In this document: piece by piece, positions 11,922-29,908 of the stretch | Layout: each line of letters begins with the position of its first letter | Position numbering within the stretch: position 1 is the first letter of the stretch | Source: Candidatus Latescibacterota bacterium | GTDB lineage: Bacteria; Latescibacterota; UBA2968; UBA8231 | NCBI GenBank assembly: GCA_965206595.1 | Contig: OZ242214.1 | Coordinates: 3,552,001-3,616,000, forward strand | Reading direction: 5' to 3' | DNA: 64,000 nt | The notes under the pieces: model-generated | What the model saw: only the letters and a program-made list of their open reading frames with translations | Databases searched by the model: none | What the model was told of the DNA's origin: nothing | Translations under genes and position numbers: made by a program

Positions 11922-11962
11922 TGAAGCGCGATGCGCTACACGCCTCCGCGATACTTCGTCAA
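11922..11962 (-). promoter_or_regulatory. higBA promoter with overlapping palindromic operator
   Basis: Imperfect palindrome TGAAGCGC-GAT-GCGCTACA (11922-11940) and a TTGACG -35-like hexamer on the minus strand (11957-11962). Confidence 0.5.
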
Positions 11963-12268
11963 TACGACGCAAGGGCCAACCCGACGTCGATGAGGGAGCA
12001 TTAGGCGATTGTTACGGATTCCGCCTTCCCCTGAGAAAGTTCACTTCCGGCCAGACCAGGAAATCCTTGCAGACACTTACGTAACCTGATGATAATTATG
12101 GACATAAAGAGAAAACTATGTCTGGGGTTACGAAGCCTGTGGACCGTAGGATGTGACGCTGGGTACGGTGTTTTCCTCTGGGATTTCAAGGGTGTAGCAA
12201 TCTCCCAAGATGCCCAACCCGACTGGAACCCACGCGCTGGTGCCGAACGCGTTGCCGCTATTGTTGTC

Positions 12269-12296
12269 GCACTTGACCCACTGCACTTGACCCACT
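12269..12296. repeat. 14-bp tandem duplication
   Basis: GCACTTGACCCACT occurs twice in direct succession. Confidence 0.8.
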
Positions 12297-12341
12297 AATG
12301 AGTAAGAGTCTTTATAGATATTTCCCGAGACAGGCCAAGTA

Positions 12342-13046: not shown

Positions 13047-13095
13047 TCGTTGTCATGGAACGCGAGATCAGATAAGATTCTAACTTGATCAGAGG

Positions 13096-14373
13096 TTGCG
13101 AAAAATAATGCAAGACTGGAATTGGGATAAGAACGGTTGGATTTGTTTTAAGGATGGCCGCGAGCATCATGCGCTCGCTAATTTTTGCGCCGTTTGCGGC
13201 GGTGCTGTCGAGAGCAAACCTGTCGATTGCATGGCCGATATACCTTCCGGAGAGAGTAAAGACAGTGCTGTCGGTAATCTGCCGGTCATTATGGACAAAG
13301 TCGACGACCTCTTTAACGTATTCGGTCAGCCTTTATTAGTGAATAAATCCAGCGGAGAAATGAGTACCTACATAGAGAACGAGCCACGCGACCTGCCTCA
13401 ACTCAATGGGGTTTCCTTGCGTCAGGTGGATTTTGACCGCTGGTGGATTTACGCGCTCACGGAGGTGGGGACGCTGCAGGTGTTTCCGACCTCTTCGTTG
13501 TTGAACGACGATATGATGAAAGCTGCTTCATGGAAGCCGCTTGCCGTGGAATGTGAGCGCGTCGAGAAGATTGCCTTAGGCCGGAATCGGCTTTTCCTGC
13601 TGGACCAAGAGGCGTTGACTATTCATGTATATAAGGTAGATAAAGCAAGTTGCGATCGATACTGGAAGAGCGAAAACCGCATTTTCGACGAATTGCAAAG
13701 ACAAGAGCTAGACCAAAATTCGTTGCCTATCGAAGAAATGATCCCGATTCGGGGAAGCGAGACCTATCTGGGCTTAATAGAAGAGGAAAACAGGGTTGTT
13801 TTCTTGGATTTGGAACAGGGCAAGAAAATCTCGTATGAGGATGAGGATGCCCGCGGCGCTCCATTAGCCGCTTCGGCGGGCGTGATGCGCGGCGAGGATC
13901 CGTCAATATGGCTATTAACTCAAGAAGGGGGCTTGTGTGCCCTACAGTTAGTCGGCCAACAGGTGCTAAAAGAAATTCCGAGCCGAACCGAGGTAGAGGT
14001 ACAGGCCCTACAGACATTGCGGATCGAGTCCGGCTATTGCTATATGGCGATAGGGTCTAATTTTATGCTATTGTTCGATCCATTGAATCGGCAAGTTACG
14101 TCCAAATTGGAGTGTAGTCCCGGATATTCCATGAGGCACATTGATCAGACCAAAGGCTTGGGCGGCTTGGTCGCCAACTTCCAAAGAGGAGTGGGAGCTA
14201 ATACGGAATTTCGTCTTTCCCGTCTTGATGAACGAGGAGGGGAACCTTTCTTGCGCGGCTGGCCTTTAGGCGAAGATCCGGTTGTGCCGCCAGCGGGTTT
14301 CGGCAAATACGTGTACGTGATGACCCGCGATCATGAGTACCATCTGTATCGCTATGACCTATTGGCCGTTTGA
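13096..14373 (+). CDS. Hypothetical protein: N-terminal Zn-ribbon-like motif plus beta-rich (possible beta-propeller) body
   Basis: WICFKD...HALANFCAVCG followed by short beta-strand repeats (WIYALT..G.LQVF; LFLLD....IHVY; IWLLTQEGGLCAL; YVYVMT). First gene of the island operon; start could be ATG 13108. Confidence 0.65.
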   Translation: MRKIMQDWNWDKNGWICFKDGREHHALANFCAVCGGAVESKPVDCMADIPSGESKDSAVGNLPVIMDKVDDLFNVFGQPLLVNKSSGEMSTYIENEPRDLPQLNGVSLRQVDFDRWWIYALTEVGTLQVFPTSSLLNDDMMKAASWKPLAVECERVEKIALGRNRLFLLDQEALTIHVYKVDKASCDRYWKSENRIFDELQRQELDQNSLPIEEMIPIRGSETYLGLIEEENRVVFLDLEQGKKISYEDEDARGAPLAASAGVMRGEDPSIWLLTQEGGLCALQLVGQQVLKEIPSRTEVEVQALQTLRIESGYCYMAIGSNFMLLFDPLNRQVTSKLECSPGYSMRHIDQTKGLGGLVANFQRGVGANTEFRLSRLDERGGEPFLRGWPLGEDPVVPPAGFGKYVYVMTRDHEYHLYRYDLLAV

Positions 14374-15961
14374 AAGCCCGTCATTCTGGTACGCTGCTCT
14401 GCTGTGCTGCCTAGGGCTTGGCGGCCCTCGTGCCGCCACTGGGATGGATGTCAGCATATTGGTCGATGGCTCTGGTTCAATGGAGGGCTTCCAGCAGACA
14501 AGTGAGCTACAGAAATTGCTGACCTCGTTGGAAAAAGCCTGCCAAGACCAGCAACTGGAGGCGGGCACTTTATTTTTTGTATCCCAACACCCGGATTCGC
14601 TAGTGTGGATCGAGGAGACCCAAGACGCACGCTGGGGCAGCTATACTAATTTGTTCAGGGCTTTTGAAGAAGGGCTTGGATGGGCTCCGATTACTTTTTT
14701 CTTAACCGATAATGTGCAGGCGACCACCAACGACGAAGATGTTCGGGGGCTCTATGCGCGTTTTGCGGAGGATGTGGTACAAGTACTATATGCCGTGCCG
14801 CTGAGTCTGCCCTTTGACGGGCGGTTGTTCAATCACCCGGACAAGGCGTACCACCAAGGTCCGCGTGGGGTGGTCCTGTATGCCTATCTCACAGAAGAAG
14901 ATCAGCGCGTTAGATTCGGCAAACTCATCTCCCAACTCAAGGCTGGCGGCTTGGAACCGATGCTGATGAAGCCGCTAGACCACCGCATTGTTCTACATCG
15001 CAAACGCAGGGCATATTCGGACCAGCCGAGCACCATCGGCATGGACGAATCCGAGTTGGTCCATTTCTCCTTTACCTTAGAGTCGCAATTGAGCTACCTG
15101 AATATCGAGCCGATGGATGAGCATGGTAATCCGGTGCGGTTGAAGGTGAGCCAGCCTAGGATCGTTCCCATGCAGCCCGAAGATCGGCGGTACTGGAGTC
15201 GAGCTGGCGGAAGGGGACAAGTTACCCCACCCCGCCTCGAAGAGAAGCTGGAGCACAATACTCAGAACAAATACCGCTATTCGTGCCGGGTACGCCTAGG
15301 CCCGTTCCAGCCCAACGAGGTTGGCTTCTTCGACCAGCTTGACATGGCGCGTACCAGCCCGATTCCGATCCAATATATGTCCAGGGTTGTCTTGGAAATA
15401 CCGCCTGGCTCGTTTCGCATGACTCCGATTTATCAGGAGAAGTACTTTACCGACAACCCCCAAGAGGTCGAGCGTATCTATACGCCAGACGATCTGATAC
15501 ACTTCCTGCACCGAGACCGAGAGGGTTTGGAAGTGGTGCCCAAGGGAGGAGCCATAAGAGGCAGGTTGCAAGTCCGTTCCCCTCTCTATCTGTGGCGGGC
15601 TTGGGTCGTGGTGATCTTGCTAGCCATCGCTGTGGTAGCTACCGGGGGAAAGGTTTATTTTAGGAGGCTCGTTTATCTGCTTGCAGCCGTAGAGTACAAG
15701 TACTGGATGCGCCCCGGCGGTCAAAAGGAATTGGAGTACACAAACCAAAGCGGAAAGGATATCGTTTTGGGATATTTGCGGCGAGACGGCCTGTTCAAAT
15801 GCAAATACCGCTTACTGCCGGCCGAAGAGGGCGACGAAAGGGCCGGACTAAGAAATCGGATGGACGATCCAGTCGGTGAGGAGGGGGTGGCTTTTGAAAA
15901 GGATGAAAAATGGGTTTTCAAACACAAGGGCAATGAATTTGAACTGGAACGCCTCAAATAA
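14333..15961 (+). CDS. Membrane-anchored vWA (MIDAS) domain protein
   Basis: Signal-like N-terminus, DVSILVDGSGSM (DxSxS), downstream FFLTD, one C-proximal TM (WVVVILLAIAVVATGG) and a ~100-aa tail. Confidence 0.72.
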   Translation: MSTICIAMTYWPFESPSFWYAALLCCLGLGGPRAATGMDVSILVDGSGSMEGFQQTSELQKLLTSLEKACQDQQLEAGTLFFVSQHPDSLVWIEETQDARWGSYTNLFRAFEEGLGWAPITFFLTDNVQATTNDEDVRGLYARFAEDVVQVLYAVPLSLPFDGRLFNHPDKAYHQGPRGVVLYAYLTEEDQRVRFGKLISQLKAGGLEPMLMKPLDHRIVLHRKRRAYSDQPSTIGMDESELVHFSFTLESQLSYLNIEPMDEHGNPVRLKVSQPRIVPMQPEDRRYWSRAGGRGQVTPPRLEEKLEHNTQNKYRYSCRVRLGPFQPNEVGFFDQLDMARTSPIPIQYMSRVVLEIPPGSFRMTPIYQEKYFTDNPQEVERIYTPDDLIHFLHRDREGLEVVPKGGAIRGRLQVRSPLYLWRAWVVVILLAIAVVATGGKVYFRRLVYLLAAVEYKYWMRPGGQKELEYTNQSGKDIVLGYLRRDGLFKCKYRLLPAEEGDERAGLRNRMDDPVGEEGVAFEKDEKWVFKHKGNEFELERLK

Positions 15962-15976
15962 TACTAGGGAGTCAAG

Positions 15977-17026
15977 ATGAAACGGCACATCACCCTCGGA
16001 TTCATACTGGCTATCGGCTGGATGGGGTGTGGCGGGTCGGGACAAAGCGGCTCCACGTTTACTCAGCGGATTGCCAAGGAAGAGAAGGGAAGCGTAGTAT
16101 TCCTCAAGGTCTCTACCAATGAGGGAGAAGGGCTGGGGAGCGGAATCATCATCAAGTCAACGGGCCAAATTCTCACGGCACACCATGTAATCAAGGGCAT
16201 CAAACAAGGATGGGCCAAGCCGTTCAACGGGACTTGGATGCCGATTACGGGCGTTGTCGCTCAAGACGAACTCAAAGATCTGGCGGTGATAAACGTCGAT
16301 CCGGGCAACCAACATCTACAGCAGTCTAGGCTTGGATCGGGAGAGTATATAAGTTCGGGCGATCCCGTAGTGGCAATAGGCAACCCGTTGGGGCTAGAGC
16401 ACTCGGTCACCGAAGGGATTATCTCCGAGGTTCGCACTACCCCGGAGGGTCTCAGACTGATTCAGACGGATGCCGCCGTATCGCCGGGCAATAGCGGCGG
16501 GCCCTTATTCGATCAGAACGGGGAGGTAATTGGCGTGGTAAGTTTTAATCTAAGCTCTAGCCACGACGAGGGGCAGAATCTCAATTTTGCGGTCTCAATT
16601 GATGAAGCTAAACCACTGCTGGGTCTCCCCGCGGACCAATTTGAACCTGTTCGGGTAGGAGTCCCGCCACCGGAGACTAGATCGAAGGGCACCTTTCGCT
16701 ATGTGGAGGTTGGGCGCCTAGTCTGGATTTTTGTGTTTTCTGTAATCGTCTATCTCTTTTCGGCCTATCTACTCTTTAGCGGGCTCATCAAGAACCGAGA
16801 CAAGCACCCGGCCACGGCTTTTGGCATATCCGCCCTCGTATCGTGGGTGGGCTTTGCGGTGATCGCTTCCTTTGTGTTGAGCGGCCTTTTTGATTTTTCA
16901 ATGGGCTGGGTGTCAGGTTCGCAAATTGAATGGCGAGTCTTCATCGCTGGGCTGGTGTTCCTAATTTTCATCGTGGTGATAGTAAGACTTGTCTCCCGGC
17001 CATCGGTCGTCGAAAATTCAGAGTGA
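15977..17026 (+). CDS. Trypsin-like (S1C/DegP-type, no PDZ) serine protease with C-terminal TM helices
   Basis: Catalytic triad motifs LTAHHV, KDLAVI and GNSGGPL; IGNPLGLEHSVTEGIIS; lipobox-like WMGC; three hydrophobic segments at the C-terminus. Confidence 0.9.
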   Translation: MKRHITLGFILAIGWMGCGGSGQSGSTFTQRIAKEEKGSVVFLKVSTNEGEGLGSGIIIKSTGQILTAHHVIKGIKQGWAKPFNGTWMPITGVVAQDELKDLAVINVDPGNQHLQQSRLGSGEYISSGDPVVAIGNPLGLEHSVTEGIISEVRTTPEGLRLIQTDAAVSPGNSGGPLFDQNGEVIGVVSFNLSSSHDEGQNLNFAVSIDEAKPLLGLPADQFEPVRVGVPPPETRSKGTFRYVEVGRLVWIFVFSVIVYLFSAYLLFSGLIKNRDKHPATAFGISALVSWVGFAVIASFVLSGLFDFSMGWVSGSQIEWRVFIAGLVFLIFIVVIVRLVSRPSVVENSE

Positions 17027-17043
17027 GAGACTACCGCCGGAGA

Positions 17044-17067
17044 CTTCGACCTGAGCGCAGCCGAAGG
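17044..17067. repeat. REP-like palindromic element
   Basis: CTTCGACCTGAGCGCAGCCGAAGG: CTTCG/CGAAG stem with a CTGAGCG..CGAAG core, intergenic. Confidence 0.45.
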
Positions 17068-17117
17068 TTTTCAGGCCACATCTAATACCAGTTGGAGCAA
17101 AATTGAAGGAGAACACT

Positions 17118-20100
17118 ATGCCTAGGGTCGGTACTCTAACTCAAGCAAAAGAAGGAAGCCAAACAATCGATATCCGTCCCACGCTTTTGATCGGCTTGGG
17201 AGGTACGGGAAAGGAAGTACTGCGACGGCTGCGACGGATGTTCTACGAGAAGTACAGGGTAGCGGGTTTACCCATCATGGAGTACCTATGGTTTGATACT
17301 GATATCCGCAATCAGTCCCTGAGCGGAGAGGTGCCCGACGAGTTGGACAGGCGTATTGATCTTACCGCTCCACAGAAGATTGATGGACGGGTCCAGCCCG
17401 GGGAGCTGGATGGATACCGGCGCAACAAGAATGCCTATCCCCATATATGGGACTGGTTTCCCAGCGAACTGGACGCGCTGCCTGCCAATGCCATCATGCA
17501 AGGTGCTGGGCAGATCCGTTCCTTCGGACGATTGGCTTTCTTCCACCATTACACGAGAATTCACGACGCCATCGAAAGATTGGGGAGAAAAGTAACTGCC
17601 CAAGAGGCCTTCGCGGACATGGACCGCGATTACCCAGATTATACGGTAGATAAAAGTGCCTTCGATATCATTATTATATCGTCTCTCGGCGGTGGAACGG
17701 GGTCTGGCTGCTTTATCGATGTCGGATTTCTGTGTCGAGTTTTGTTCCCAACTTCTACGCGCACGGCTTTTCTTGCCATGCCCACGGTTTTCGACGATGT
17801 AGTGGGATCCGCCGGGACAGAAGCCGTCCATGCCAATGGCTTTGCCGCCCTCAAGGAACTCGAATACTTCATGCAGCCCCGGTTTATCGTCGACGAGGAT
17901 AAGGAGACAAGCGAATACTCTACCCACGAATTTAATTGGGATGGTAGCCCTCAGCCGGTGCCAGCACCGCCTTTTGATACGGTCTATATGCTCGACAACG
18001 AGAATGTGGATGGCGAACGCATCACCGAATTCACTGATACGTTCCAGATGATCGCCGAGTTTCTGCTGCTGGATTTCGACCGGACTAGATTTGCCGCTCA
18101 AAAGCGCAGCGTACGTTCCAATATGGAGCAGTACCTACAGGATGTGACAGGCTACCACAGCGGAAGCTATGTCCAGTATTTTCCATGCCGATATGCATCT
18201 TTCGGGCTCTCCCAGATTGAATTGAATCAGCCTCGTCTGGCCAATGCGGCAGCTAATCGCTGCGCTCAGTATCTGGTAGAACTTATCATGGCCAAGGACA
18301 ACAGAATCCCTCGGGGCTATGATGATGCCGATGTCAAACCCCGCTTAGAGGGGATGGGCCTAACTGAGAAACTCTTTTTGCAACGCTGCTTGGCCATGCC
18401 CGGAAAGGATTTCACCTTGATTGATGAGGTCGTCAACGAGTTGATCGAACCGGCTTTCAATGAGTTGCAGAACGAGTTGCACACGGCACCGGCGGTAGAG
18501 GATCAAAAGGTTTTGGATCACCTAGTGGAAAAAACGCGGCAGGATATGGGTAGATTAGTCCGCGAGGTGAAGGAACGAGTAGGGGAAAGACTGTTACAGC
18601 AAGGCACCAAAAAGGGCGATGGTGTGACGCAGATCCTGGAAAATATCAGCTTGGATCGTCCCAATCTCGAAAAGCGGGTAGAGGCTGAGTGTCTTGAATT
18701 ATTATGCGATCCCTTGAATTTCGGCCCCAAGTTTATGGTTGAGTGGCTGAAGATCGCCGTCCTCGAACTAGAGCGCATCAAAGAGGAATTGCAGGCTAGG
18801 GAGAATCAGGACATAGAAGCACTAGAGGCACCGTCGCTCGAAATCGAATTTTCCGAAGATTACGAGAAATACGAGGCTCGCCTAAAAGCGGCTAGGGATG
18901 AGATGCCCTTTGCCATCTTAACTAGACGAATCGCTATCAACCATTACAAAGGACGCAAAAAGCAATCCCTTAAGCAGAACGCCGAGCTTATCACCCGTAA
19001 TCTGGTGCAGCAGGTGAAAGCTGTCGAGAAGCAACTAAAGGAATGGGTCACCGCTCGCTATGAGCAGGAAGCGGCTAGGCGTCTGTTCAATCCCAATTCC
19101 GGGGGACAGGTGCAGGAAAAGGGCCTGCTTGAAAATATGATCGGCTTTGTCGGCCAACAGACCGAAGTCCGGGGTACAGATGGTGAACTCCAGGTGGAAT
19201 TCAGCGGTTTGCTGGCCAAGGTAGAGGAATTTCAAAAACATCTCCAAGATCTGGCTAGCCGATTCGAGGGGTTCCATAATTCTTATCGAAAGCGGATGCC
19301 CAGTGTACGCAACCTCAGTCTCATGCCCGAACTTAACTATGAGGAGGCAATAAAGAAAGAGCTCGAAAGAAGAGGACTGACAGGTGCCGGTTTCAAGGCA
19401 ATTTTGCAAAATATTTTGAGGAGATATTTCCGATCGGAAGAAGCCAAGCCGCTGTTTGCTGAGTACGCTAATCTCGAAGGGACAGAGATCGATGCCATAC
19501 GAGATTGTACCCGCATTATCTTCAATCGCTCGGCGAATAAGAACAATGCCCCTCGTGATTGGGAAGAGGTAGAGGATTCATTGAGTCGGTTCGCGTTTGA
19601 CCTATTTAAAGAGTTCTATGCCGACAGGAACGCTGTTCAAGAGTTGCAAAACCAGAAACATAACGAGAAAGAGGAGATGCAGAAACGAGCACGGCTAGCC
19701 AAACCGCGGATGTCCAAGTTGAAACCTGCCCCTCAGGGTATGTCGAACCACACTCGGAACACGATAGGACTTCCCCCAAATGAAAAAAGGTGGGAGGAGC
19801 TAATCGACCAAAACGTGGAAGGATACAAAGCGGAGTATCACGCCCCCGATTCGGTGATATTTGTCAGTCAATGGATGGCCTTTCCTCTGTTCGCTATCGA
19901 GAATTTGAGGAAACTGCACGGGGCATACAAAAACAACCTTAAAGTTCCGCAGAATGTATTCCGTCGGTACATGACCAAAGACTATATCAAATATCCGGAG
20001 ATACTACCGCCTAGGGACGACCAAGAAGCGCGAACGCTAGTGGATGCCCTACAGCCGCTCATTGATGGCATCTTACTCGAGGTAGTGACTTTTGACAGAC

Positions 20101-20579
20101 GGGGATTCTACCGAACTTACCGAGCGCAGGGGCGAAAATACACGGATCATTACGGACCTAATATCGAGGTGGCACGCCGGAGTTTGGCCCAAGACAGGGA
20201 CACACGAGATAGGCTGCGCCAAGCGGTGCAAAAGATTTGGGATAACTGGAAATCGAATGGCAATGGCCTCGTTTTCGAGCAGTACTTGGCCCTCCAAAGC
20301 CATCTAGTGGATGAGGTATATCCCAAAAGAAGAGTTGTGATAGACGGCCAGAGTGTGAATGTGGACGACTTGTTCTACAGCTTGCTTAGCGAGGCTTTCA
20401 AAAAGAATTTCAAGGAGGTGCAGAAGCGCTTGGGCATTAGCCCCAGCGAATTGGACGACCGTATCGTCAAACACTTGCAGAACAAAGATGGTTTTGCCAA
20501 ACCCCTAGACTATAGCGATCCTCACTGCAAAGACGATATATATGTGATGGCGGGTGCCAGCCAATGCTTAGAGAAGTGA
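17118..20579 (+). CDS. Large tubulin/FtsZ-like GTPase (Tubulin_2/FtsZl1-type) with long helical C-terminus
   Basis: PTLLIGLGGTG, GAGQIRSFGRL, tubulin signature SLGGGTGSG and ANGFAALKEL, then ~780 aa mostly helical/coiled-coil. GAAGGAG RBS before ATG 17118. Confidence 0.88.
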   Translation: MPRVGTLTQAKEGSQTIDIRPTLLIGLGGTGKEVLRRLRRMFYEKYRVAGLPIMEYLWFDTDIRNQSLSGEVPDELDRRIDLTAPQKIDGRVQPGELDGYRRNKNAYPHIWDWFPSELDALPANAIMQGAGQIRSFGRLAFFHHYTRIHDAIERLGRKVTAQEAFADMDRDYPDYTVDKSAFDIIIISSLGGGTGSGCFIDVGFLCRVLFPTSTRTAFLAMPTVFDDVVGSAGTEAVHANGFAALKELEYFMQPRFIVDEDKETSEYSTHEFNWDGSPQPVPAPPFDTVYMLDNENVDGERITEFTDTFQMIAEFLLLDFDRTRFAAQKRSVRSNMEQYLQDVTGYHSGSYVQYFPCRYASFGLSQIELNQPRLANAAANRCAQYLVELIMAKDNRIPRGYDDADVKPRLEGMGLTEKLFLQRCLAMPGKDFTLIDEVVNELIEPAFNELQNELHTAPAVEDQKVLDHLVEKTRQDMGRLVREVKERVGERLLQQGTKKGDGVTQILENISLDRPNLEKRVEAECLELLCDPLNFGPKFMVEWLKIAVLELERIKEELQARENQDIEALEAPSLEIEFSEDYEKYEARLKAARDEMPFAILTRRIAINHYKGRKKQSLKQNAELITRNLVQQVKAVEKQLKEWVTARYEQEAARRLFNPNSGGQVQEKGLLENMIGFVGQQTEVRGTDGELQVEFSGLLAKVEEFQKHLQDLASRFEGFHNSYRKRMPSVRNLSLMPELNYEEAIKKELERRGLTGAGFKAILQNILRRYFRSEEAKPLFAEYANLEGTEIDAIRDCTRIIFNRSANKNNAPRDWEEVEDSLSRFAFDLFKEFYADRNAVQELQNQKHNEKEEMQKRARLAKPRMSKLKPAPQGMSNHTRNTIGLPPNEKRWEELIDQNVEGYKAEYHAPDSVIFVSQWMAFPLFAIENLRKLHGAYKNNLKVPQNVFRRYMTKDYIKYPEILPPRDDQEARTLVDALQPLIDGILLEVVTFDRRGFYRTYRAQGRKYTDHYGPNIEVARRSLAQDRDTRDRLRQAVQKIWDNWKSNGNGLVFEQYLALQSHLVDEVYPKRRVVIDGQSVNVDDLFYSLLSEAFKKNFKEVQKRLGISPSELDDRIVKHLQNKDGFAKPLDYSDPHCKDDIYVMAGASQCLEK

Positions 20580-23500
20580 GTCAAGAGCGGGTTGATAAGG
20601 CGATGGGTGCTTGTCCTGTTTGTCAGTGGCCCTGTGGAAGTCGAATCATCTTTTGCAGCAGTTGCGGGATTCAACTCGCCCGTCTAGAGGTGTCTCCCAA
20701 GCCCGTTGAGTCGTTGACGCTTTTCGAAGGCTTTCCAGTCATCATGTGGTTCGAGAATACCGGGAAAATAGCCGTGGAACTGGAACGTCTCGATGGAGTG
20801 GAATGGGCTTCGGAAGCGAATTGGCCCGTCTCCTTGGAACCAAAGGAAAAAATAGAAATACGCCGGCAGCATACCGAGCGTCTCGGCCAACGGGGGCGGT
20901 TGATCCTGCACTCCACGGTGTCACCGATTTCATTTCATTACCGGGTCCAAAAGGCTCCCCGAATCTGGCTGGCTGACGAGCAGGGACGGAAGTTTGACCA
21001 AGGCACTGACGGCGCACAGTTGTGGCCGGTAAATCAGGAAGCCCAAAGGCACGATCTGGCTCTTCACGCCGCAAGCGAAGTTGTTTTGGAAGGGCCTCCC
21101 CGTCTGTCCAAGGGAGATCAGGTGGTGGATATAGTACCGACGGAAGAGGTAAGCTACCCTTTCCGCTTAGGCCCAGACAAAGCTTTTTCGGTAAGTCTCA
21201 CCCAACCTCAGCCCCTGTCTGAAGAAGGGCATCCTGTATACCTCGTTTTTGCCATCCAGAACAGAGGTGATGTCCATTTTCATCTCAATCTAAAGTACAC
21301 TCTTCGGCCGGTGATCGAGGTTGAGTTCAATCCGCTGAGTTTCACCGGTGACACGGCACTTATCAGCGGAAGCCGAAAACAGAAGACTGCGAGTGCCACC
21401 ATTACGCACTTACGAGGCGCACCACTACGCATAAATGTCGTGACTAGCGATACGTCTTGGCTGCAGGTCATTGACACCAAGAAGGCCCCGGTCATCCTTA
21501 ACCCTCAGAGTTCAACGGCGGGGGTTGGTGAGGTGAGTGTGCTGGATCTCCGGTTGCAAATAAAGACTCTCGAAATCCCTTGGGTAACAGAATCAAAGCA
21601 TTTTAAACCCGAGATCATCGTCAAGGGGGAGGCTAGAGGAGCGGAAGACCCGGCGTTCGAAGAGAGGTACTCGCTCTTTGTCGAAGTAAAGCCTCCCACC
21701 CCGTTAGATTATCCTATTGGCATCGATTTTGGGACGACCAATTCTTGCTTGGCCTATGTTGAAGATGAAGAGACAATGCCTCGCTTGGCAGAACTCGAGA
21801 TAAATGAACCTCGCGCCGAAGTGCCGACTGTCTTTCAGTTCCTAGCAACAAATATGAAAACGGAACGTTTGGAACTTTCCAACCCTCTGGAGCCTAACGA
21901 GCATCACTTGGTGGCGACCGAGAACGAGGAAGCTATCATGCGCTTTGGGCGTCAGCCATTTTGGCAGATGAACGATCTTTGGCTCAATAGCGATGCCAAT
22001 GAGTTCTGGAACTTTATGAGCAGTATCTGCTGGAATTTCAAATACGCTCTCAGCCAACCCGACGATCAGAATTTTTATATTTCTACCGGGATGTCGGAAG
22101 GTATCTTGATCAATGGACATCCCTCTATAAATAGGCGGCCTATCAGCCTGACTCCGGTGGACCAAGTAGCTATTTATCTCCGATTTATGGTAGAGCACTT
22201 CATTGGAGAATTCGGGTATTTGCCCAAAGAGGGCGTGCTGACTTATCCGGCGGTATTCAATCGCCAAAAACAGGCCCTACAGGACGCCGCCGAAAAGGCT
22301 TTGCAGGATCGCGGCATTAAGCTCCACCTAGCTATTAGTGAGCCTGAAGCTATTGCGGTGTATTATGTGAAGAAGCAGCTTGATGAGGGTAATCTGAAAG
22401 ATGATATGGATGAACAGATCATTGGGGTATTCGACTGTGGTGGGGGAACGACCGATATGTCCATCGTACGCTACACTATGAATAATAATGAAGCTCAAGT
22501 GGAAATTCTCGGTTCCGATGGCGACAATCGGCTGGGAGGGAACCTGCTGACATTTCACTTGGCTAAATACTTCTACGAGCAACTCGTCCCTGAACAGTAC
22601 CGCAGTCGCTATCCCTTTGCAAAAGATCTGCGTGATGGCTTAAGCACCCAAGATCCCAGTATGAAAAAGAACTTTCTGTGTCTCTATCGGTTAGCTGAGG
22701 AGATCAAGACAAACAGCAAGGCTTATGAGTCGTTCGATGAATGTTTTTCCCAAGACAGCTACAAGAAACTGATCCAAACAAGAGATAAGGGATTGCTGGA
22801 TCTGCTAGCCAGTGACGAGAAACTGAATTGGCCTAGGATTGATTTGGTCAGCCGAGAAGGGGGCGATGTATTTCGAGTCACGGAGGGCTTAAAGCGCAGC
22901 ATCAACGGCGACGCCTTGCCGGAGGAACTTAGCTCTATGGATTACCAGGCTATTCGCTCTGTGCTCAGCCGAGAATTAGAATGGGGCTTCCAAAAACTAG
23001 CTATGATGCAGCAGGCGCTTTTCGAGCGGGAGATTATGTCGGAATTCCGGCTAGACCACCTGATCTTGGCCGGCAACTCGTCCAAATTGCCGATTATGAA
23101 AGAGGTCGCCCAGGAGATGATACAGGCTAAAGAGTTTTCGGACTCTGCTCTTTCTTCAGAGACAGCCTCCAATAATGGCTTGAAGGCGAGCGTGGCTTCG
23201 GGAGCGGCTATTTACAGCATGTCTCAACGCGATCCAGAGTTCAGACTTCAAGTCTTCGGGATACACAAGCTAAATTATCCGATAGGTTCCTACAATCCAA
23301 TGCGAGGCTTCAGCCCCATTTTCGACCGTTGGATTTCCCTAAATAATGGAGAGGTACATCGCTATGCGAGCAGGGTTTCTCCTAATGATCGTAGGATTCC
23401 TCGGATCCTACTGTACGAATTCTTCGATTGGGACTACAAAAACCGGAAAGCAGATCGGAGTAAAGTAGCGGATATTCCCATGCCGCTAGGGAACAGAGCT

Positions 23501-23665
23501 TTTATGCAGGCCGAGTATTGGCAGTACAAGCTCGAGCTTCGAGCCGACGAAAATAATCTCGGTCGGCTCTATTACAACTTCGCGGTAGGACAGGAAAATG
23601 ATGGAAGTGATTTTGAAGAAATTTATGATGAATACTTGAGATGCGAGGACTTTAACTATAGTTGA
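20564..23665 (+). CDS. Atypical Hsp70-family ATPase with N-terminal Zn ribbon and beta-sandwich-like extension
   Basis: GIDFGTTNS, ISEPEAIA, VFDCGGGTTD, LGGNLL, LILAGNSSK and SVASGAAIY actin/Hsp70 motifs; N-terminal CPVC...FCSSCG. Confidence 0.88.
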   Translation: MLREVSQERVDKAMGACPVCQWPCGSRIIFCSSCGIQLARLEVSPKPVESLTLFEGFPVIMWFENTGKIAVELERLDGVEWASEANWPVSLEPKEKIEIRRQHTERLGQRGRLILHSTVSPISFHYRVQKAPRIWLADEQGRKFDQGTDGAQLWPVNQEAQRHDLALHAASEVVLEGPPRLSKGDQVVDIVPTEEVSYPFRLGPDKAFSVSLTQPQPLSEEGHPVYLVFAIQNRGDVHFHLNLKYTLRPVIEVEFNPLSFTGDTALISGSRKQKTASATITHLRGAPLRINVVTSDTSWLQVIDTKKAPVILNPQSSTAGVGEVSVLDLRLQIKTLEIPWVTESKHFKPEIIVKGEARGAEDPAFEERYSLFVEVKPPTPLDYPIGIDFGTTNSCLAYVEDEETMPRLAELEINEPRAEVPTVFQFLATNMKTERLELSNPLEPNEHHLVATENEEAIMRFGRQPFWQMNDLWLNSDANEFWNFMSSICWNFKYALSQPDDQNFYISTGMSEGILINGHPSINRRPISLTPVDQVAIYLRFMVEHFIGEFGYLPKEGVLTYPAVFNRQKQALQDAAEKALQDRGIKLHLAISEPEAIAVYYVKKQLDEGNLKDDMDEQIIGVFDCGGGTTDMSIVRYTMNNNEAQVEILGSDGDNRLGGNLLTFHLAKYFYEQLVPEQYRSRYPFAKDLRDGLSTQDPSMKKNFLCLYRLAEEIKTNSKAYESFDECFSQDSYKKLIQTRDKGLLDLLASDEKLNWPRIDLVSREGGDVFRVTEGLKRSINGDALPEELSSMDYQAIRSVLSRELEWGFQKLAMMQQALFEREIMSEFRLDHLILAGNSSKLPIMKEVAQEMIQAKEFSDSALSSETASNNGLKASVASGAAIYSMSQRDPEFRLQVFGIHKLNYPIGSYNPMRGFSPIFDRWISLNNGEVHRYASRVSPNDRRIPRILLYEFFDWDYKNRKADRSKVADIPMPLGNRAFMQAEYWQYKLELRADENNLGRLYYNFAVGQENDGSDFEEIYDEYLRCEDFNYS

Positions 23666-24679
23666 ATGTTTTGTAGCAATGACCTGACAAGGGAGACGTT
23701 AAAAAATAAAGACCAGAAAAAGCTTAGAATGGATAAGATATCTATGGCAGAATTCCAAGAAAAGGTTGAGGCCCTAGGCAACGAAGTTGCCCACTGGGAG
23801 AAAGGGCTCCAAGCTCTGCAGGAAATCGTCTCTAAGACAAGACAGGTCCGCGAGAAACTACACACGGGCGATCTCGGCAGTCTCGTCTTCTCGGATATCC
23901 TCGATGTAGCCAAGGGCTTCGATGGAGCGGAAGAGAGCTTTGTGAAGAAAGTTGGCGTGTTTTTGAACGATTTGAGAAACTTCAGAAAAAAGCTGACAAA
24001 GTTCCACGACAATATACAAGCCTCCTACGACGATTACGCAGATCTCTACCAGTCTATCCCTATCAACACCAAGTTCCAAGAGCTACAAAAGCTAGGGGTC
24101 GATGTGGAAAAGAGACTAAAATCGTTCCAAGAAGAAGTACGGGATGCTGCCGAAGAATGGATCAAAAAATACTCAAAGATTACAAATACCCGAGATCGTT
24201 TCCGAGAAATGCTCGAAGAACTGCCACTAGAACCTGAAAAGAGTATGCCGTCGATACAGTATGCCGAGACCATTGACGAGGACATCAAAAAGATCAAAGA
24301 GGCAGTGAATAAATTGGATTTTGTCTCTTTTATATCGGAGGGATCGGCTCTCAAAGATCAATGGACGACGATCCAAGCTAAGATAGACAGTTGTAGCAGT
24401 CCGTGGGATTCTGCACTGATCGGTTTAATCAAACAGTTGGATGGCAAAGAAAAATCGCTAGAACAGAAACCCGCAAAATTGGAAAGATTTGCCCAAGAAC
24501 GCGACTTTGAGTTGATTTGGCCAGAGCAAGGGGACAAATACTCGCCAGAAGATCACCAAATTTCCGATGAGCGAGAAGATTCTCAGGTAGGCCGCGGTCA
24601 AGTGATTCGATTTGTTACACCTGGATTACGCCGGGGAACTGAGGTAATTGTTAAGTCCGGGATTTTGCTAGCGAAATGA
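23666..24679 (+). CDS. Coiled-coil protein with C-terminal GrpE-like domain (putative nucleotide-exchange factor)
   Basis: Long helical region, then GDKYSPEDHQ...GQVIRFVTPGL...VIVKSGILLAK, which matches the GrpE head pattern (GxxFDPxxH...GxVxxVxxxGY...A.V.V). Directly follows the Hsp70 gene; start may be ATG 23729. Confidence 0.68.
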   Translation: MFCSNDLTRETLKNKDQKKLRMDKISMAEFQEKVEALGNEVAHWEKGLQALQEIVSKTRQVREKLHTGDLGSLVFSDILDVAKGFDGAEESFVKKVGVFLNDLRNFRKKLTKFHDNIQASYDDYADLYQSIPINTKFQELQKLGVDVEKRLKSFQEEVRDAAEEWIKKYSKITNTRDRFREMLEELPLEPEKSMPSIQYAETIDEDIKKIKEAVNKLDFVSFISEGSALKDQWTTIQAKIDSCSSPWDSALIGLIKQLDGKEKSLEQKPAKLERFAQERDFELIWPEQGDKYSPEDHQISDEREDSQVGRGQVIRFVTPGLRRGTEVIVKSGILLAK

Positions 24680-24736
24680 GCAAAAGGGTGCCTGTCCTGT
24701 AACTGAATTCCAACTACAGCAGAGAAATCCTCTCCC

Positions 24737-26337
24737 ATGAGTTTAGACTTTTTAGCCCAAAACAGCGATCAGATTCGGGACTGTTTTATCGCTCTCATTA
24801 TCTTGGTCGGCCTATTTGCACTTTACCGATTTGTCCAAGGATGCAGAGAAACGCGGCGATATCGCAGCGGATTGCGTGCTATGGAGAGATGGGAGAAAAG
24901 CAATTCTAATTTCAATCTAGAGGAAAAGACTGAGCAATCTCCCGAAGATGTTATTAAGGAAGTCCAGCATCCCCTAGCCGTCAGTTGGCTCGAACAGCTC
25001 CAGATGTAGACGGTCTTATCGGCTCTATCGAACACGAACTCGCCCGGTACGACGAAGCATTCCGCTCACTTACCAGCAGCCTCATTCTATTGGGCCTACT
25101 GGGCACGTTCGTTGGCTTAATAATCGTGGTCATACCTATCCCAGGTATTATCCAAGGAGCGCAGATTTCACCGACGTTGAGGCAAGAGGTAAAAATAGAG
25201 GATGTATTTAGTACCATCCTAGAAGGATTAGGACAGTCCGTAAGCGGGATGCCGCTGGCGTTCATTACCAGTATAATAGGACTTTTTTCCACCTTAATCC
25301 TCAATGCTCTGTACAGCCCACTACTCCACAGTAGGAACACATTATTGGCAAACATGGAAGAGTGCTTCAACGCGAAGATCGCTCCCAAGTTTGCTGTAAT
25401 GCCGCCTCAGTTGCGCTTGAGCCGCGTCTTTACTCAAACAGTAAACGACCTATACGATAAGTATTTCACTGCGCTTTCCGAATACTTAGACAAAAGACTC
25501 AAGGAGATTGTCAATAGTAACGCCCGCATGGTCTTACTTATAGAAGAGGGCGGAACCAAGCTCAAGGAAAGTAGCGAGGCCAGTCTGAAGAGCGCGCAGA
25601 TTTTTGAGCAGCACAAAGATACGGTAGCTGCAGGGGCGAAAGAAATAATGAGAGCGGCTATAGAGTTTTCTCGACACATCGAGAACTTTGAGCGGCTAAG
25701 CGGGCCTCTGAATGCGCTCAAGAACAGCGTCGATACTATGCTCAAGGAGAGCGAGCGACTGATGGCCCGACAGTTTCAAGCCTTTGATGAGCGGATAGAC
25801 AGACAATCCAAGTTATTTGAGGAGCGAATGGAGATCCTAGGAGATGGTCTAGCCGAGACTCTGGAGACGATAAGAGGATTGAATGACACAGATTATCGTC
25901 CAAATTTCGTGAACATCCAGAACCTACTCATTGCGGTCAAGGAGAGCCAAGATGCCTTCCTGGAATTTCAGAAGAAGACGCTCAACGAGCAAGGCGAAGC
26001 GTTTGAACGGGCTAAGAAACCCTTACAAGATGAATTGGAAAGGCTTCGCCAAGATCTGCAAGGATTTAACAAGGAGATAACGTTGTTGCAGAACCAGGCA
26101 GGCCAAGTGGTAGGGGCGGTCAATCAAGGGTTCAAAAAAACTGGGGAGGATCTCCAAGTACTGAAAGCTATAGATCTGGTAGTCCCCAAGCTCGAAGACA
26201 TGAATGCGACGGCGCAGGCTATAGAGGCTCAGTTGGATGGTATAGCGAAATCGCCGCAGGGTATCACCGTACGATCTCAAAGAACATTGAAATGGAGCAA
26301 TATTCGCCAGTTATTCAAGAAAAATAGCAGGGAATAG
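24737..26337 (+). pseudogene. ZorA/MotA/TolQ/ExbB-like proton-channel subunit with long coiled-coil tail; split by a frameshift near 24990-25005
   Basis: ORF 24737-25009 carries TM1. ORF 24985-26337 carries LLGLLGTFVGL and GMPLAFITSIIGL (MotA/ExbB/ZorA TM motifs) and a ~300-aa helical tail. The break could be real or an assembly error. Confidence 0.75.
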
Positions 26338-26376
26338 CCAGAACCATTAGCTGAATGCTTGGGAAAGTAGCCCCGG

Positions 26377-27033
26377 ATGAAAAGGAATCGCAGCAGCCAT
26401 AGTGGACTCGATTTCTGGCCTTCTTTCACGGACGCAATCACGGCTATTTTCATTTGCGTCACCTTTTTTCTTGTTGTGATGGTGATCAAGAATTATGTGG
26501 ATCTGAGCCGTCTGCGAACGCTGGAACAATTGGTGGGTAAGATAGAGAAAGATCTCGATGAGTTAGAGGAATTTATGGGGGGGGAAGACGTCCTCGTGGA
26601 AGAGGGTACAATTGTTATGCGCAGTGATATTTTGTTCTCTTTTGATGAATCCGAACTGGATGATATTCCCGTCGAAGGGCAGAATCGGCTCAGCCGAATC
26701 GGTAAAAAATTGAAGGAGTTTACGGAAAAAAAAGACAGTAAATTGTTCAGCATAGTGGTAGAGGGCCACACCGACAGTTACGGCGAGAGGGAATACAACC
26801 GCAGTCTATCTCTGAGACGATCTCAAACTGTAATGGACTATTGGGAGCAGGTCGGTTTCACTTGGCAAAATTACGATATTGTCCCGGTCGGCTTAGGTGA
26901 GCGGGAGCTGGTTGTTCCAAACGGAACAAAGGATGAACAGTCCCCTAACCGACGTATCGTTATCCGATTGGTGCCTAAATTTAGCCAACTAATCCAAAGC
27001 CTGAAGGAACAGAACATCCTACTGAGGGAATAG
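26377..27033 (+). CDS. ZorB/MotB-like subunit with OmpA-type peptidoglycan-binding domain
   Basis: FWPSFTD (conserved ion-binding Asp) at the start of a single TM; VVEGHTD, YNRSLSLRRS and NRRIVI OmpA motifs. Confidence 0.9.
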   Translation: MKRNRSSHSGLDFWPSFTDAITAIFICVTFFLVVMVIKNYVDLSRLRTLEQLVGKIEKDLDELEEFMGGEDVLVEEGTIVMRSDILFSFDESELDDIPVEGQNRLSRIGKKLKEFTEKKDSKLFSIVVEGHTDSYGEREYNRSLSLRRSQTVMDYWEQVGFTWQNYDIVPVGLGERELVVPNGTKDEQSPNRRIVIRLVPKFSQLIQSLKEQNILLRE

Positions 27034-27585
27034 CAGTGCTCTGTCATTTAACCCTCTTTGCTGTTGCCTTTGCCAAAGGGAAGACTTTCCGGGGCGGTGG
27101 AGGCTGTTGGGCGGAATCGTTGAGGAGCACGAACTGTCAAGGCGACCGCCCTTGTACCGCCGCCGCGAATCAACCTCATCCCGCTATCCCGGGGTCCTCG
27201 CCCTAACGCCAGAGATCGCCCCCACATCCTACCGCGGTCCCAAGACGAAAACCCTGGGTTGCCCTAGAGTGAACTGTCTCCTCCTGATTTACGAACCCGT
27301 GGAACGCCGCTCAGCTTCTTCGTTCACGCTCTGCTCCACTTGACGCCGACTGTGTGCCGGAGCCAGTAGCAATCTCCGGATTGCTTTCAACCGGGAACCT
27401 GTTCCACTCATGCACCGCGGGCGCTGGGGTTCAAGCGCCACTTGGGTTAACTGTCGGATGTACACCGGTTTGCGTCGCCCGAGCACTTGATCGGATCGGA
27501 CGCTCGATGCGGAGGACGCCAGTCGCCGGTTGGTTCTCACACCTCTCACACCCTCAACCAGAGGGAACGAGAACGGCCGGCTCCC

Positions 27586-29908
27586 CTATCGCACCTCATC
27601 CTCGCGGATACTGATGGTTCGGTCGATCTCCGGATTGTCGAGCCGGGTCGTCCGACCCGACGGCCAGCGCACCTCGAGCCGGGAGACCGCTTCCGCAGAA
27701 CCAAGGCCGAACTCCAGCGGCAGGCTGTTGGTGGTGCCGAAACCGCCGCCGCTGGCCACTTCCTCGAGCAGCTGCCGCCCGCCGGCATGGACCGTCACCT
27801 GGGCCCCTATGGCGCTGCGATTCGACCGCGATCCCTCCAGCTCGACAGCGAGCCAGTGCGATCCCCGTCCCTCGTTGCGGTAGAGGCTGTTGGGCCACAG
27901 GTCGCCCGGGTAGTGCCCGCCGATGGCGGCGTAGAGGTCGAGATCGCCGTCGCCGTCGTAGTCGGCGAACGTCGCCCCGTGGCCCTTGCCCAGATTGCCG
28001 ACCCCGGCCGCTTCGGTGACGTCGGCAAAGCGCTCCCCGCGGTTGTGGTAGAGTATGTTGGGCTCGAACCGCGGCATGACCGGGCCTCCGTTGGCCAGGT
28101 ACAGGTCGACGAGGCCGTCATAGTCGATGTCGCCGATGCCGGCCCCCATCGTGCCGAAGTTCCTGGAGATCCCGGCGCCGAGGGCTACGTCGGCGAACCG
28201 GTCCCCGCCGAGGTTCCGGTAGAGGTGGACGCGGTTGCGGCTCACGGCCCGTCCGGCGACCTGCGACTCGACGAACTGCTCGTAGTAGCACATGGCGGAG
28301 ACGAACAGATCGACGGCGCCGTCGCGGTCGAAGTCGGCGAAGAAGGCGACGTAGCCCCCCTCCTCCGGCTCGGCCACCCCGGCGCTCGCGGTGACGTCGG
28401 TGAAGTGCGATCCCGATTCGTTGCGGTAGAGGGTGTTCGGCCCGGCGACGTCGGCGACGTACAGGTCGACGTCCCCGTCGCGGTCGTAGTCGCCGAACGC
28501 CACCCCGAGCGACTTGCCCGGGTGCGCGACCCCGTAGAGGTCCGCCCTGTCCTCGAAGCGGCCGCCGCGGTTGACGAAGAGCTTGTTCGGGGTGCCGCCG
28601 CCGGTGATCCCCTCGGCGACGTACAGATCGACCCGGCCGTCGTTGTCGACGTCCCCCCAGGCCGCGGTGAAGCTGTCGTCCGGGTCGCCGACCCCGGCCT
28701 CGTCGCTGACCTCGCCGAAACGGAGGCTCCCGAGGTTGCGGTAGAGGGAGTTCGGGGCCTTCCCCTCCCAGGCGTCGCGGGTCGCGTAGAGGTCGAGGTC
28801 GCCGTCGTTGTCGTAGTCGACCGCGGTGGCGCTCCAGCCGCCGCGCGGATCGCCGAGGCCGGCTGCCGCGGTGACATCGGTGAACTGCGCCCCCGACTCG
28901 TTGCGGTAGAGGGAATGGGGAACCTGGATGCCGGTGCTGAACAGGTCGAGGTCGCCGTCGCCGTCGAAATCCCCCCAGGCGTTGCCGCGGCCGCGGTCGC
29001 GCTTCGCGACGCCGAGCGCTTCGGCGACGTCCCGGAAAGCGACCGGGCTATCCTCGCCAAGATCCGCAACCGTGAGCTGATAATCCGCCGGAAGATCGCC
29101 GGGGTAGTCCCCGTGAAGGCCGAGGTACGCCAGGCGCAGGTTCCACTTCATGCGCTGCGGTTCGCGCGCTCCCTTCGGGGTCGAGTCGAGGGCTTTGCGG
29201 TAGGCTGCGATCGCCGCTTCATACTCGCCCAGCCAGTGATGGGCGGTTCCCAGCAGGAAGGCGAGATGCGTTTTCCCCGGGCTCACCGCGAGCAGCCCGC
29301 TCATCTCGGCCGCGGCCCGCTCGAAAACACCGAGGCGCAGCCGCGACGCCGCGGCGCCGGCGCGGGCCCGGGGGTCGCCGGGGTTGTTACGCAGCACCGC
29401 CTCGTACTGCTCGAGCGCGCCTTGCGGGTCGGGAGGGGCCCGCGTCATCAGCAGGTCGGCGAGCATCATCCGCGGGCGGCCGCGGTCCGGAAAATCTCCG
29501 ACAAGGGCCGCCAGCACCTCGCGCGCTTGCGGACGGCGATCGAGCACCACCAGCCACCCGGGCCTGCTGCATGCGCGCCTCAGGCCGGCCGGGGTCGTGT
29601 CCGACGGCCCGCTCGAGCTGGTGCAGGGCCTCGGGCAGTTTTCTCTGGCGCATCAGGATCTCGCCGAGGCCGAGACGCGCCTCGTAGTGCGCCGTGTCTG
29701 CGCGCAGAACCTGCCGCAGGACCACGGCTCCGGAGTCCAGCTCCCCCCGGTGGATGATCTCCAGCGCCGCCTGAAACCGAGCCCCGGCGTGCCGGCCTTC
29801 CCCCGCGGCCGGCGGATCCTCCGGGACGCCTGCGCAACCGCAGATCGCCGTGGCGAGCGCCGCTGTCACCAGGCCACGCAGAGGCTCAAGCCATTTCGCC
29901 CAGTTCAT
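27586..29908 (-). CDS. TPR + CRTAC1/ASPIC-UnbV FG-GAP lipoprotein; one +1 frameshift near 29555
   Basis: N-terminal part (MNWAKW...ICGC lipobox, TPR helices) joins ORF 27586-29550 if one G is removed (..QQARV/LVVLDRRPQAREVL). Many DxDxDG repeats and an ASPIC tail. Confidence 0.8.

Follow-up and report, generated by a model that had tools for sequence, protein, structure and literature searches.

A probable ZorAB-like stator pair closes an FtsZl1 operon in a Latescibacterota genome

What is a pair of genes resembling the Zorya stator subunits ZorA and ZorB coupled to, when no Zorya effector, flagellar or Ton/Tol gene lies beside it? Such a pair, called A and B here, is found at positions 24737–27033 of a 64,000-nt stretch of DNA (the window) from a Candidatus Latescibacterota bacterium (GenBank assembly GCA_965206595.1, contig OZ242214.1, positions 3,552,001–3,616,000 of the forward strand). 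The initial annotation, made from the sequence alone, had described the pair as a further lineage of 5:2 ion-driven motors standing without partners. Comparison with other genomes shows that A and B close an operon of eight genes, acquired horizontally, whose central component is a GTPase of the FtsZl1 (Pfam Tubulin_2) family. That the pair belongs to an FtsZl1 system is highly probable, and A and B are very probably a ZorAB-like ion-driven stator. The reading as a whole, a ZorAB-like stator coupled to the FtsZl1 tubulin-like system, is favoured by a modest measure.

The operon consists of eight co-oriented open reading frames (ORFs) on the plus strand, g1 to g6 followed by A and B, which overlap or are spaced by 0–77 nt in the ORF listing. 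Their order is a propeller-like protein, a vWA-like protein, an HtrA-like protease, the FtsZl1/Tubulin_2 GTPase, an Hsp70-like ATPase, a coiled-coil protein, A and B. Thus six co-oriented genes stand directly upstream of the pair, and together with the FtsZl1/Tubulin_2 linkage found in at least four phyla they overturn the claim that it has no partners. The narrower claim, that no flagellar or Ton/Tol gene accompanies it, is borne out, since none of the eight genes has a TonB, TolA or flagellar match in Pfam or NCBIfam. All long ORFs within the low-GC stretch that holds the operon are on the plus strand. In a scan by 2-kb windows the guanine-cytosine (GC) content falls from about position 12000 onward and lies at 0.47–0.55 across 12001–28000, as against 0.65–0.73 in the rest of the window.

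The linkage of the pair with the tubulin-like gene recurs across genomes. A scan of species-representative genomes returned 42 loci, 11 of which, all from Latescibacterota metagenome-assembled genomes (MAGs), hold the block from the second to the eighth gene in the same order; eight of them show 60–96% protein identity and three show 28–49%. The first gene, g1, lies directly upstream of g2 in all three relatives that were fetched (94%, 85% and 27% identity). Among 168 Latescibacterota genomes the profile of A finds matches in 17, PF13809 in 17, and both in 16. In 15 of these 16 the two matches share a contig and a strand and are separated by a few kb; in the sixteenth they fall on two small contigs. 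Neither A nor Tubulin_2 was found by profile search in the other two genomes of the genus to which the window belongs. Outside the phylum, a Cloacimonadota MAG has the order Tubulin_2, Hsp70-like gene, three unknown genes, A and B, and three cyanobacterial loci have a minimal arrangement of Tubulin_2, A and B. Among 301 cyanobacterial genomes, sampled evenly, Tubulin_2 occurs in 52 genomes (65 places) and an A-like gene in 49 (53 places). At 35 of the 65 Tubulin_2 places, two of which are the halves of one split gene, a same-strand A-like gene follows 1.7–3.2 kb downstream, so that the adjacent arrangement is carried by 34 of the 301 cyanobacteria, or 34 of the 52 Tubulin_2 carriers. The 19 unpaired A-like places are mostly weaker matches.

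The gene neighbourhood itself has been on record since 2010. The supplement of Makarova and Koonin (2010; PMC2875224) tabulates, in the parts available, the order vWA, FtsZl1, 'B7' (523–549 aa) and a COG1360 'flagellar motor protein' for three cyanobacteria, and FtsZl1, a 'MotA/TolQ/ExbB membrane protein' and OmpA for two Deinococcus. B7 carries there only the label 'membrane-associated protein', and the available main text does mention the OmpA genes, with 0 occurrences of MotA. The cyanobacterial gene 3' of the tubulin-like gene aligns with A at two of the loci (L014 and L039, probability 96–97%), and it holds the position where the supplement lists B7. The order of Tubulin_2, A and B therefore recurs in at least four phyla, including Latescibacterota, Cloacimonadota, cyanobacteria and Deinococcus. 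The window operon likewise has a PF13809 gene together with an OmpA/MotB-family protein, the marks of FtsZl1 operons. It resembles the operons described in 2010 in its Tubulin_2 gene, in a vWA-like gene upstream, and in a membrane protein and a MotB/OmpA protein downstream; unlike them it adds Hsp70-like, coiled-coil, protease and propeller-like genes, and it is without the P-loop GTPase and the kinase that are frequent components there (PMC2875224, as far as available). No paper naming a stator in FtsZl1 operons was found in the literature searched, which did not extend to subscription journals. The neighbourhood was thus already tabulated, and the motor reading and the link with Zorya were not found in print within that literature.

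It is improbable that A and B only happen to adjoin the tubulin-like genes and function apart from them. Such independence would agree with the fact that an interaction between the pair and the tubulin-like genes is inferred from gene order only. However, order and strand are fixed in Latescibacterota (in two clades at 28–45% identity), Cloacimonadota, cyanobacteria and Deinococcus, and the cyanobacterial module is reduced to Tubulin_2, A and B alone.

The A gene of the window is broken. The initial annotation had drawn it as one gene at 24737–26337, and this could not be upheld: it lies in two frames on the plus strand, a 5' fragment of 90 codons (24737–25009), which encodes the first transmembrane (TM) helix and the start of the cytoplasmic segment and ends at a stop created by the frameshift, and a 3' part of 450 aa in the shifted frame (24985–26337), which encodes TM2, TM3 and a helical tail (about 25402–26334). 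The 5' fragment shares 72 of 89 residues with the N-terminus of an intact homologue, P0002. Alignment of the DNA with relatives places a 28-nt deletion between 24995 and 24996; the 28 nt are present in all six related loci and absent from the window, and homology to the A family resumes at 24997. The deletion takes out family residues 86–95 (HFRALHRQNK), including F87, R92, Q93 and N94, all of which are invariant in the family alignment. Among the 41 proteins found at E ≤ 1e-3 in a database search with the longer, 450-aa ORF, 24 close relatives (75–92% identity) are single proteins of 481–594 aa, and the A product on record for the window genome (P0026) has only 327 aa. The window genome is also the sole carrier, among the 17 in the 168 Latescibacterota genomes, in which the A match is split over two frames. 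Of the public sequencing runs compared, X4 has a contig with exactly 28 extra letters behind 24995, and X1 and X6 have contigs with a net gain of 25 letters, in frame as in the related locus L001. None of the four runs compared contains the deleted form, the fourth, X15, covering only 24300–24686. A loss of 28 nt is unlike the usual errors of long-read sequencing. Programmed frameshifting as a rescue of A was considered and rejected, because no slippery heptamer is seen by eye around 24985–25009 and the ten conserved residues are missing regardless. Since the deletion changes the frame and strips invariant residues from the segment that joins TM1 to TM2, A is likely to be inactive in this genome and the stator most likely dead here. 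The window copy is therefore a pointer to the family rather than a working system.

The fold of A was modelled with AlphaFold2 (AF2) on the intact homologue P0002, using a 41-row alignment. A carries three hydrophobic helices. Over residues 1–230 of the model the block means of the predicted local distance difference test (pLDDT) are 82–93, two loops excepted, and the tail, residues 232–541, is predicted to be all-helical (helices 232–300, 309–389, 396–476 and 483–513). A tail of about 300 residues had been expected from the initial annotation, and its length of about 310 residues agrees with this. The TM motifs named there were also located, TM2 as LILLGLLGTFVGL at 25081–25119 and TM3 as GMPLAFITSIIG at 25246–25281, as were the TM motif (26416–26433) and the OmpA domain (E 3.3e-14) of B. 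In TM2 and TM3 the residues G128, T132 and G135 are the same in all 41 sequences, and G179, A183, F184, S187 and G190 are kept at ≥ 90%. By sequence, the conserved polar residues on TM2 and TM3 that would be expected to face the Asp of B in 5:2 motors are present. The relatives P0005 and P0009 have tails of different length (541–594 aa). Tail length varies fast in the family, because of tandem duplications of helical segments that are recognisable by eye (DKRLKEIV-containing, EQGEAFERA...LRQDLQ).

In structural re-alignment (VIA) the model matches TolQ (9ddm_D) with Z 13.3 and a root-mean-square deviation of 3.3 over 196 residues, ExbB (5sv0_C) with Z 13.3, and ZorA with Z 12.4 (8qyy_A) or 12.1 (8qyd_A and 8vvn_D), the ZorA chains overall lying at Z 11.8–12.4 and the 4-TM MotA/PomA at Z 8.1–8.3. 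Residues 8–240 taken against ExbB/TolQ give Z 12.3–13.3 and root-mean-square deviations of 3.1–3.4. A Foldseek search with the whole model returned nothing at E ≤ 0.001, its top rows, with E from 1.6e-3 to 3.5e-2, being ExbB, TolQ and ZorA. The modelled fold of A is thus of the 3-TM ExbB/TolQ/ZorA type. Sequence profiles, unlike the fold, do separate A from ExbB/TolQ/MotA-like proteins. With hhalign the family profile of A matches the true ZorA of G102, whose genome belongs to the same family, at a probability of 97.8% (E 6.6e-13, 241 columns), and it reaches 96–97% (E 3.5e-9 to 1e-10) with the A proteins that are linked to FtsZl1 in cyanobacteria and Cloacimonadota; with the five ordinary MotA_ExbB-family proteins of the window genome it reaches only 1.4–50% (E 1.6e-4 to 0.036). 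The 3' ORF of A gives E 1.5e-6 and 25 bits with PADLOC ZorA3 and E 0.025 with Pfam MotA_ExbB; a PDB sequence search with the A profile gave coiled-coil noise only (E ≥ 0.026) and listed no ZorA or MotA chain.

The B subunit (218 aa, 26377–27033, plus strand) has an N-terminal TM helix, a helical linker and an OmpA-like peptidoglycan-binding domain, which lies in residues 87–192. Its TM motif is WPSFTD, with the codon for Asp19 at 26431–26433. The Asp is present in ten of 11 aligned rows, the eleventh, from the distant relative L009, being a wrongly chosen ORF; W14 is invariant, and T18, D19 and the OmpA motif GHTD...N...L...R are near-invariant. B matches PADLOC ZorB1 (PDLC00609) over nearly its full length with E 1.5e-20 and 71.7 bits. 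In a PDB sequence search the best matches are OmpA domains, and the only solved chain that aligns significantly to the TM helix and linker is ZorB 8qyd_F (E 9.2e-8, residues 2–154), the MotB-like 8vvi_A scoring 0.24. In L009 tblastn recovers only some 61 residues of B (11600–11779) and a PhyH-family dioxygenase gene (11783–12601) directly follows, so that B may be truncated there. A plasmid search with B returned 124 records, which are generic OmpA proteins only with no annotated ZorB.

The 3-TM fold and long tail of A, together with the TM Asp and OmpA domain of B, uphold the initial description of the pair as ZorAB-like rather than MotAB-, ExbBD- or TolQR-like. The pair is alike to the Zorya subunits of Escherichia coli type I (8QYD) in having a 3-TM A with a long helical tail and a B with a TM Asp and a peptidoglycan-binding domain; ZorA and ZorB are its best sequence and profile matches, and the fold agrees at Z 12.1–12.4. 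In contrast, its tail extends over about 310 residues and is the shorter of the two, since E. coli ZorA has 729 residues and, in the available text, a tail that begins near residue 223 (PMC11946911). The pair also scores far below the family models, and it is accompanied by the tubulin-like GTPase and the Hsp70-like ATPase together with the vWA-like protein and the HtrA-like protease. A paralogue of an ordinary stator of the Ton/Tol or flagellar kind is disfavoured and can hardly be the explanation, even though ExbB and TolQ are among the top fold matches, superposing best on the A core, and one public source labels a close A homologue 'biopolymer transport protein ExbB/TolQ/methyl-accepting chemotaxis protein'. 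Where ExbD and TolR have their own fold, B has an OmpA domain, and the 310-residue tail has no counterpart in ExbB/TolQ chains of 216–236 residues. Flagellar MotA has four TM helices and a large FliG-contacting loop, and A has three TM helices and a Z of about 8 to MotA/PomA. The genome holds six other MotA_ExbB-family genes, five of ordinary size and a zorA remnant, the A profile giving E ≥ 1.6e-4 to the ordinary five, and the operon has no TonB/TolA or flagellar gene.

By sequence, then, A and B are closest to ZorA and ZorB and lie outside the canonical Zorya families. In a 17-row tree the FtsZl1-linked A proteins of Latescibacterota group together (87/90) and two ZorA1 references group apart (100/99). 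The window A does not nest with these two references, in line with the proposal of a separate lineage; the deep nodes of the tree are weak (56/83), and its ZorA references are of type I only. Of 53 scanned relatives of A, 52 match ZorA models, none above about 56 bits. The positive control, genome G102, scores 162 bits for ZorA, 280 for ZorB, 120 for ZorC and 1091 for ZorD. It carries a complete type I Zorya (G102:C2:958000–977000; minus strand, 6464–13952 of the extracted locus L046) with ZorA, ZorB, ZorC and ZorD of 658, 238, 457 and 1140 aa.

Could the pair instead be a degenerate canonical Zorya, that is, a zorAB whose effectors were deleted downstream or lie elsewhere? This explanation is largely refuted and very improbable. 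It would fit the best PADLOC matches of A and B, which are ZorA and ZorB models, and the presence of a zorD fragment in the genome. This fragment, which covers positions 856–998 of the 1208 in the ZorD1 model and scores 234 bits, is found near 4.588 Mb, some 1 Mb from the window, directly behind a zorA of its own, truncated at the 3' end (452 aa, 124.6 bits to PADLOC ZorA1, model positions 66–462 of 700). The remnant (G000:C1, about 4587037–4588856; L053:5037–6395 and L053:6311–6856) keeps the last 150–180 or so codons of zorD, has no zorB or zorC between zorA and zorD, and has a Uma2-family gene upstream. It is a decayed type I Zorya, unrelated to the window pair. Other matches of the ZorD model in the window genome are generic helicases, and ZorC was found with neither PF15611 nor NF041789, the latter of which does detect ZorC-like genes in two of 168 genomes of the phylum. 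The same A and B with the same upstream genes and no zorC/D occur in 11 loci, and the 100/99 clade of the two ZorA1 references leaves out the family of the window A. None of ZorC, ZorD, ZorE, ZorF and ZorG is linked to the operon in Pfam and PADLOC searches, ZorE, ZorF and ZorG not having been searched for genome-wide, and the absence of a link to ZorC/D-type nucleases claimed in the initial annotation therefore stands. Its proposal to look for unlinked zorC/D genes gave a mixed outcome: no ZorC, and a zorD fragment that belongs to another zorA.

With the degenerate Zorya set aside, a ZorAB-like stator of an FtsZl1 system can be pictured by analogy with Zorya. In Zorya, according to the available text of PMC11946911, ZorB anchors to peptidoglycan after perturbation of the envelope, the flow of protons rotates ZorA together with its tail, and soluble effectors are then recruited by the tail. 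On the model of Hu et al. (2024), A and B would form a proton-driven A5B2 unit, and anchoring of B to the cell wall would let A and its tail turn. The tail would then hand the envelope event to the cytoplasmic tubulin-like GTPase and not to ZorC/D nucleases. In the eight-gene version the Hsp70-like ATPase and the coiled-coil protein might also participate, and the vWA-like protein and HtrA-like protease might operate on the periplasmic side. The specific proposal of a rotary proton-driven ZorAB-like motor coupled, mechanically or allosterically, through its long tail to a tubulin-superfamily polymer is tentative.

Zorya sets the precedent of a 5:2 ion motor that serves as an infection sensor and signals through a long tail to nucleases, and if the coupling proposed here is real, the range of uses of such motors widens. 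Envelope events sensed at the cell wall would switch the assembly of a tubulin-like filament on or off. This would be a bacterial motor-cytoskeleton pair without a described counterpart, present from cyanobacteria to Deinococcus and Latescibacterota. The FtsZl1 family, known since 2010 and uncharacterised, would gain a testable mechanism in stator-dependent assembly, and the module has culturable carriers in Deinococcus radiodurans (DR_0536–0538) and several cyanobacteria.

Several observations weigh against a ZorAB-like stator coupled to the FtsZl1 system as an envelope-triggered device. Its Zorya-style working is proposed by analogy, and the A tail is modelled at low confidence (pLDDT 30–57). 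The fold alone cannot tell ZorA from ExbB/TolQ, because the Z values lie within 1 of each other. B scores 39.2 bits with NCBIfam ZorB1, for which the cut-off is 400, and A scores at most 26 bits with the PADLOC ZorA models, as against 125–162 bits for true ZorA proteins of the same phylum and genome. A defence role in particular has weak support: the seven stator-linked loci examined are mostly flanked by housekeeping genes (tRNA synthetases, PFK, GAPDH, transporters), the sole defence-like or mobile neighbours among them being an integrase (L010) and a helicase-nuclease (L027). Among viral contigs, 515 pattern matches yielded no confirmed relative. The public runs compared for A contain relatives and evidently not the window's own reads, so that the 28-nt loss may be either a true mutation or an assembly fault.

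At somewhat less than even odds, the whole is read as an accessory conflict (defence-like) system triggered at the envelope, and not as a housekeeping machine; the patchy, mobile and decaying copies speak for this. Kaur, Burroughs, Iyer and Aravind (2020; PMC7159879) predicted GTPase-centric systems with tubulin, HSP70/GrpE and vWA components to be conflict systems; in the available text these share with the window operon the joining of tubulin-family, HSP70-family and vWA or vWA-like components in an accessory operon, and differ from it in their GAP1-type GTPases and in their distribution, mostly Firmicutes and Actinobacteria. MotA/ExbB has 0 occurrences in that text. No GAP1-type GTPase was found among the window operon genes with Pfam and NCBIfam. 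A plasmid of Meiothermus taiwanensis (NZ_CP021131.1, 78767–97810) holds a trio of vWA, tubulin-like and 679-aa hypothetical genes with no recognised stator; the genes around this trio are brxL, a DUF1156 gene and one of the Swt1 family of HEPN proteins, a defence-island context. Directly downstream of the Cloacimonadota operon (L027:12448–17190) is a defence-like gene for a protein of 1580 aa, in which a helicase (AAA_11/AAA_12) is joined to a REase_MTES_1575 nuclease domain at the C-terminus.

The same operon and motor might instead form a non-immune machine for membrane or envelope remodelling, or a cytoskeletal one, in which the stator anchors or energises a tubulin-like filament at the inner membrane. 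This alternative is rather unlikely. Makarova and Koonin (2010) proposed membrane remodelling for vWA/FtsZl1/OmpA operons (PMC2875224, as available), the housekeeping flanks of the stator-linked loci suit it, a gene of the dynamin GTPase family (Dynamin_N, E 1.2e-25; L014:9396–11504) follows one of the cyanobacterial Tubulin_2-A-B modules at a distance of about 3 kb, and presence in 34 of 301 cyanobacteria is frequent for a rare defence system. Against a remodelling machine stand the patchy distribution in the phylum (17 of 168 genomes, and none of the other two of the genus), the low-GC island with flanks that differ between genomes, the inactivation of copies by deletion here and by an insertion sequence (IS) in L001, the vWA/tubulin-like pair without a stator that adjoins BrxL and HEPN on the Meiothermus plasmid, and the treatment of tubulin/HSP70/vWA systems as conflict systems by Kaur et al. 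(2020; PMC7159879, as available).

The marks of mobility and decay bear on both views. Island DNA is 82–97% identical between the window and the loci of other species, and the identity forms a mosaic along its length. The relatives' islands have 46–54% GC and their flanks about 60% or more, and the two downstream flank proteins of the window have no match in L001–L011. The tubulin-like gene of L001 is split by a DDE transposase gene (DDE_Tnp_1_5, E 7.3e-39; L001:2471–3481, minus strand), which leaves ORFs of 492 and 687 aa, and this is a second, independent inactivation of the operon. Because the island is patchy and of low GC, its flanks differ, and copies are broken by the deletion here and the IS in L001, the operon looks like an accessory system that can be transferred and at times decays. 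In sum of how the initial annotation fared, its motifs and ZorAB-likeness are retained, and its single A gene and partner-less state are not.

The six partner genes, all on the plus strand, are described in operon order. The first, g1 (13096–14373), encodes 425 aa with a Cys-rich, Zn-ribbon-like N-terminal segment and possibly a beta-propeller; it has no Pfam, PADLOC or NCBIfam match, and propeller families are only a weak lead in the atlas (0.77). A 542-aa vWA-like membrane protein is encoded by g2 (14333–15961), with a DGSGS motif resembling a metal ion-dependent adhesion site (MIDAS) at residue 45 and a hydrophobic segment near residue 430; the closest atlas clusters are VWA_2/VWA_3 (score 0.84, a lead only), and Pfam and NCBIfam give no vWA match; the gene is kept in L002–L011. 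Next comes g3 (15977–17026), an HtrA/DegP-type trypsin-like serine protease (Pfam Trypsin_2, E 8.9e-29; GNSGGP motif) with an N-terminal signal or lipobox-like segment, C-terminal TM helices and no PDZ domain; its score with NCBIfam degP_htrA_DO, 142 bits, is under the cut-off. The FtsZl1/Tubulin_2 GTPase itself is g4 (17103–20579), of 1158 aa, which matches PF13809 in residues 28–392 (E 1.4e-66), has the loops GLGGTGKE and GGGTGSG and a C-terminal extension of about 760 aa, and is kept in L001–L011 at 43–93% identity. A plasmid search with g4 gave eight records of tubulin-like genes, none covering ≥ 80% of the query. A complex prediction of FtsZl1 residues 470–1158 with A tail residues 140–450 scored 0.00 and, having no controls, carries no weight.

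The product of g5 (20564–23665) has 1033 aa, with a Zn-ribbon-like N-terminal segment and an ATPase domain of Hsp70/actin fold (PF00012 HSP70, E 1.2e-15) that shows the motifs DFGTTNS and DCGGGT; the NCBIfam DnaK/HscA models give 59–65 bits, under their cut-offs. Finally, g6 (23666–24679) encodes a coiled-coil protein of 337 aa that ends in a small beta domain, according to an AF2 model of pLDDT 61.7 with long helices followed by strands at 282–336. Its identity as GrpE was considered and not confirmed (Pfam E 0.0047, under the cut-off; in Foldseek the top match has E 0.55 and GrpE comes at rank 14, E 1.8). The marine metatranscriptome run X15 has a contig over the 3' end of g6 (24300–24686) that differs in 10 of 387 letters and is a relative's sequence; it indicates presence in an RNA library, not proof of transcription.

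A promoter and terminator scan found fewer sites than in shuffled sequences and is hence uninformative. A tRNA scan found no tRNA genes in 8000–32000, and so no tRNA-linked integration site. An FG-GAP/ASPIC gene abuts the island on the right. On the left, a fragment of an IS-type transposase (12474–13088, plus strand; Pfam HTH_21, E 1.2e-16) abuts its end, preceded by a helix-turn-helix (HTH)/XRE-type gene (11358–11891, minus strand) and a gene for an M78/IrrE-like peptidase (8690–9604), and this left flank (8690–13088) resembles the debris of mobile elements.

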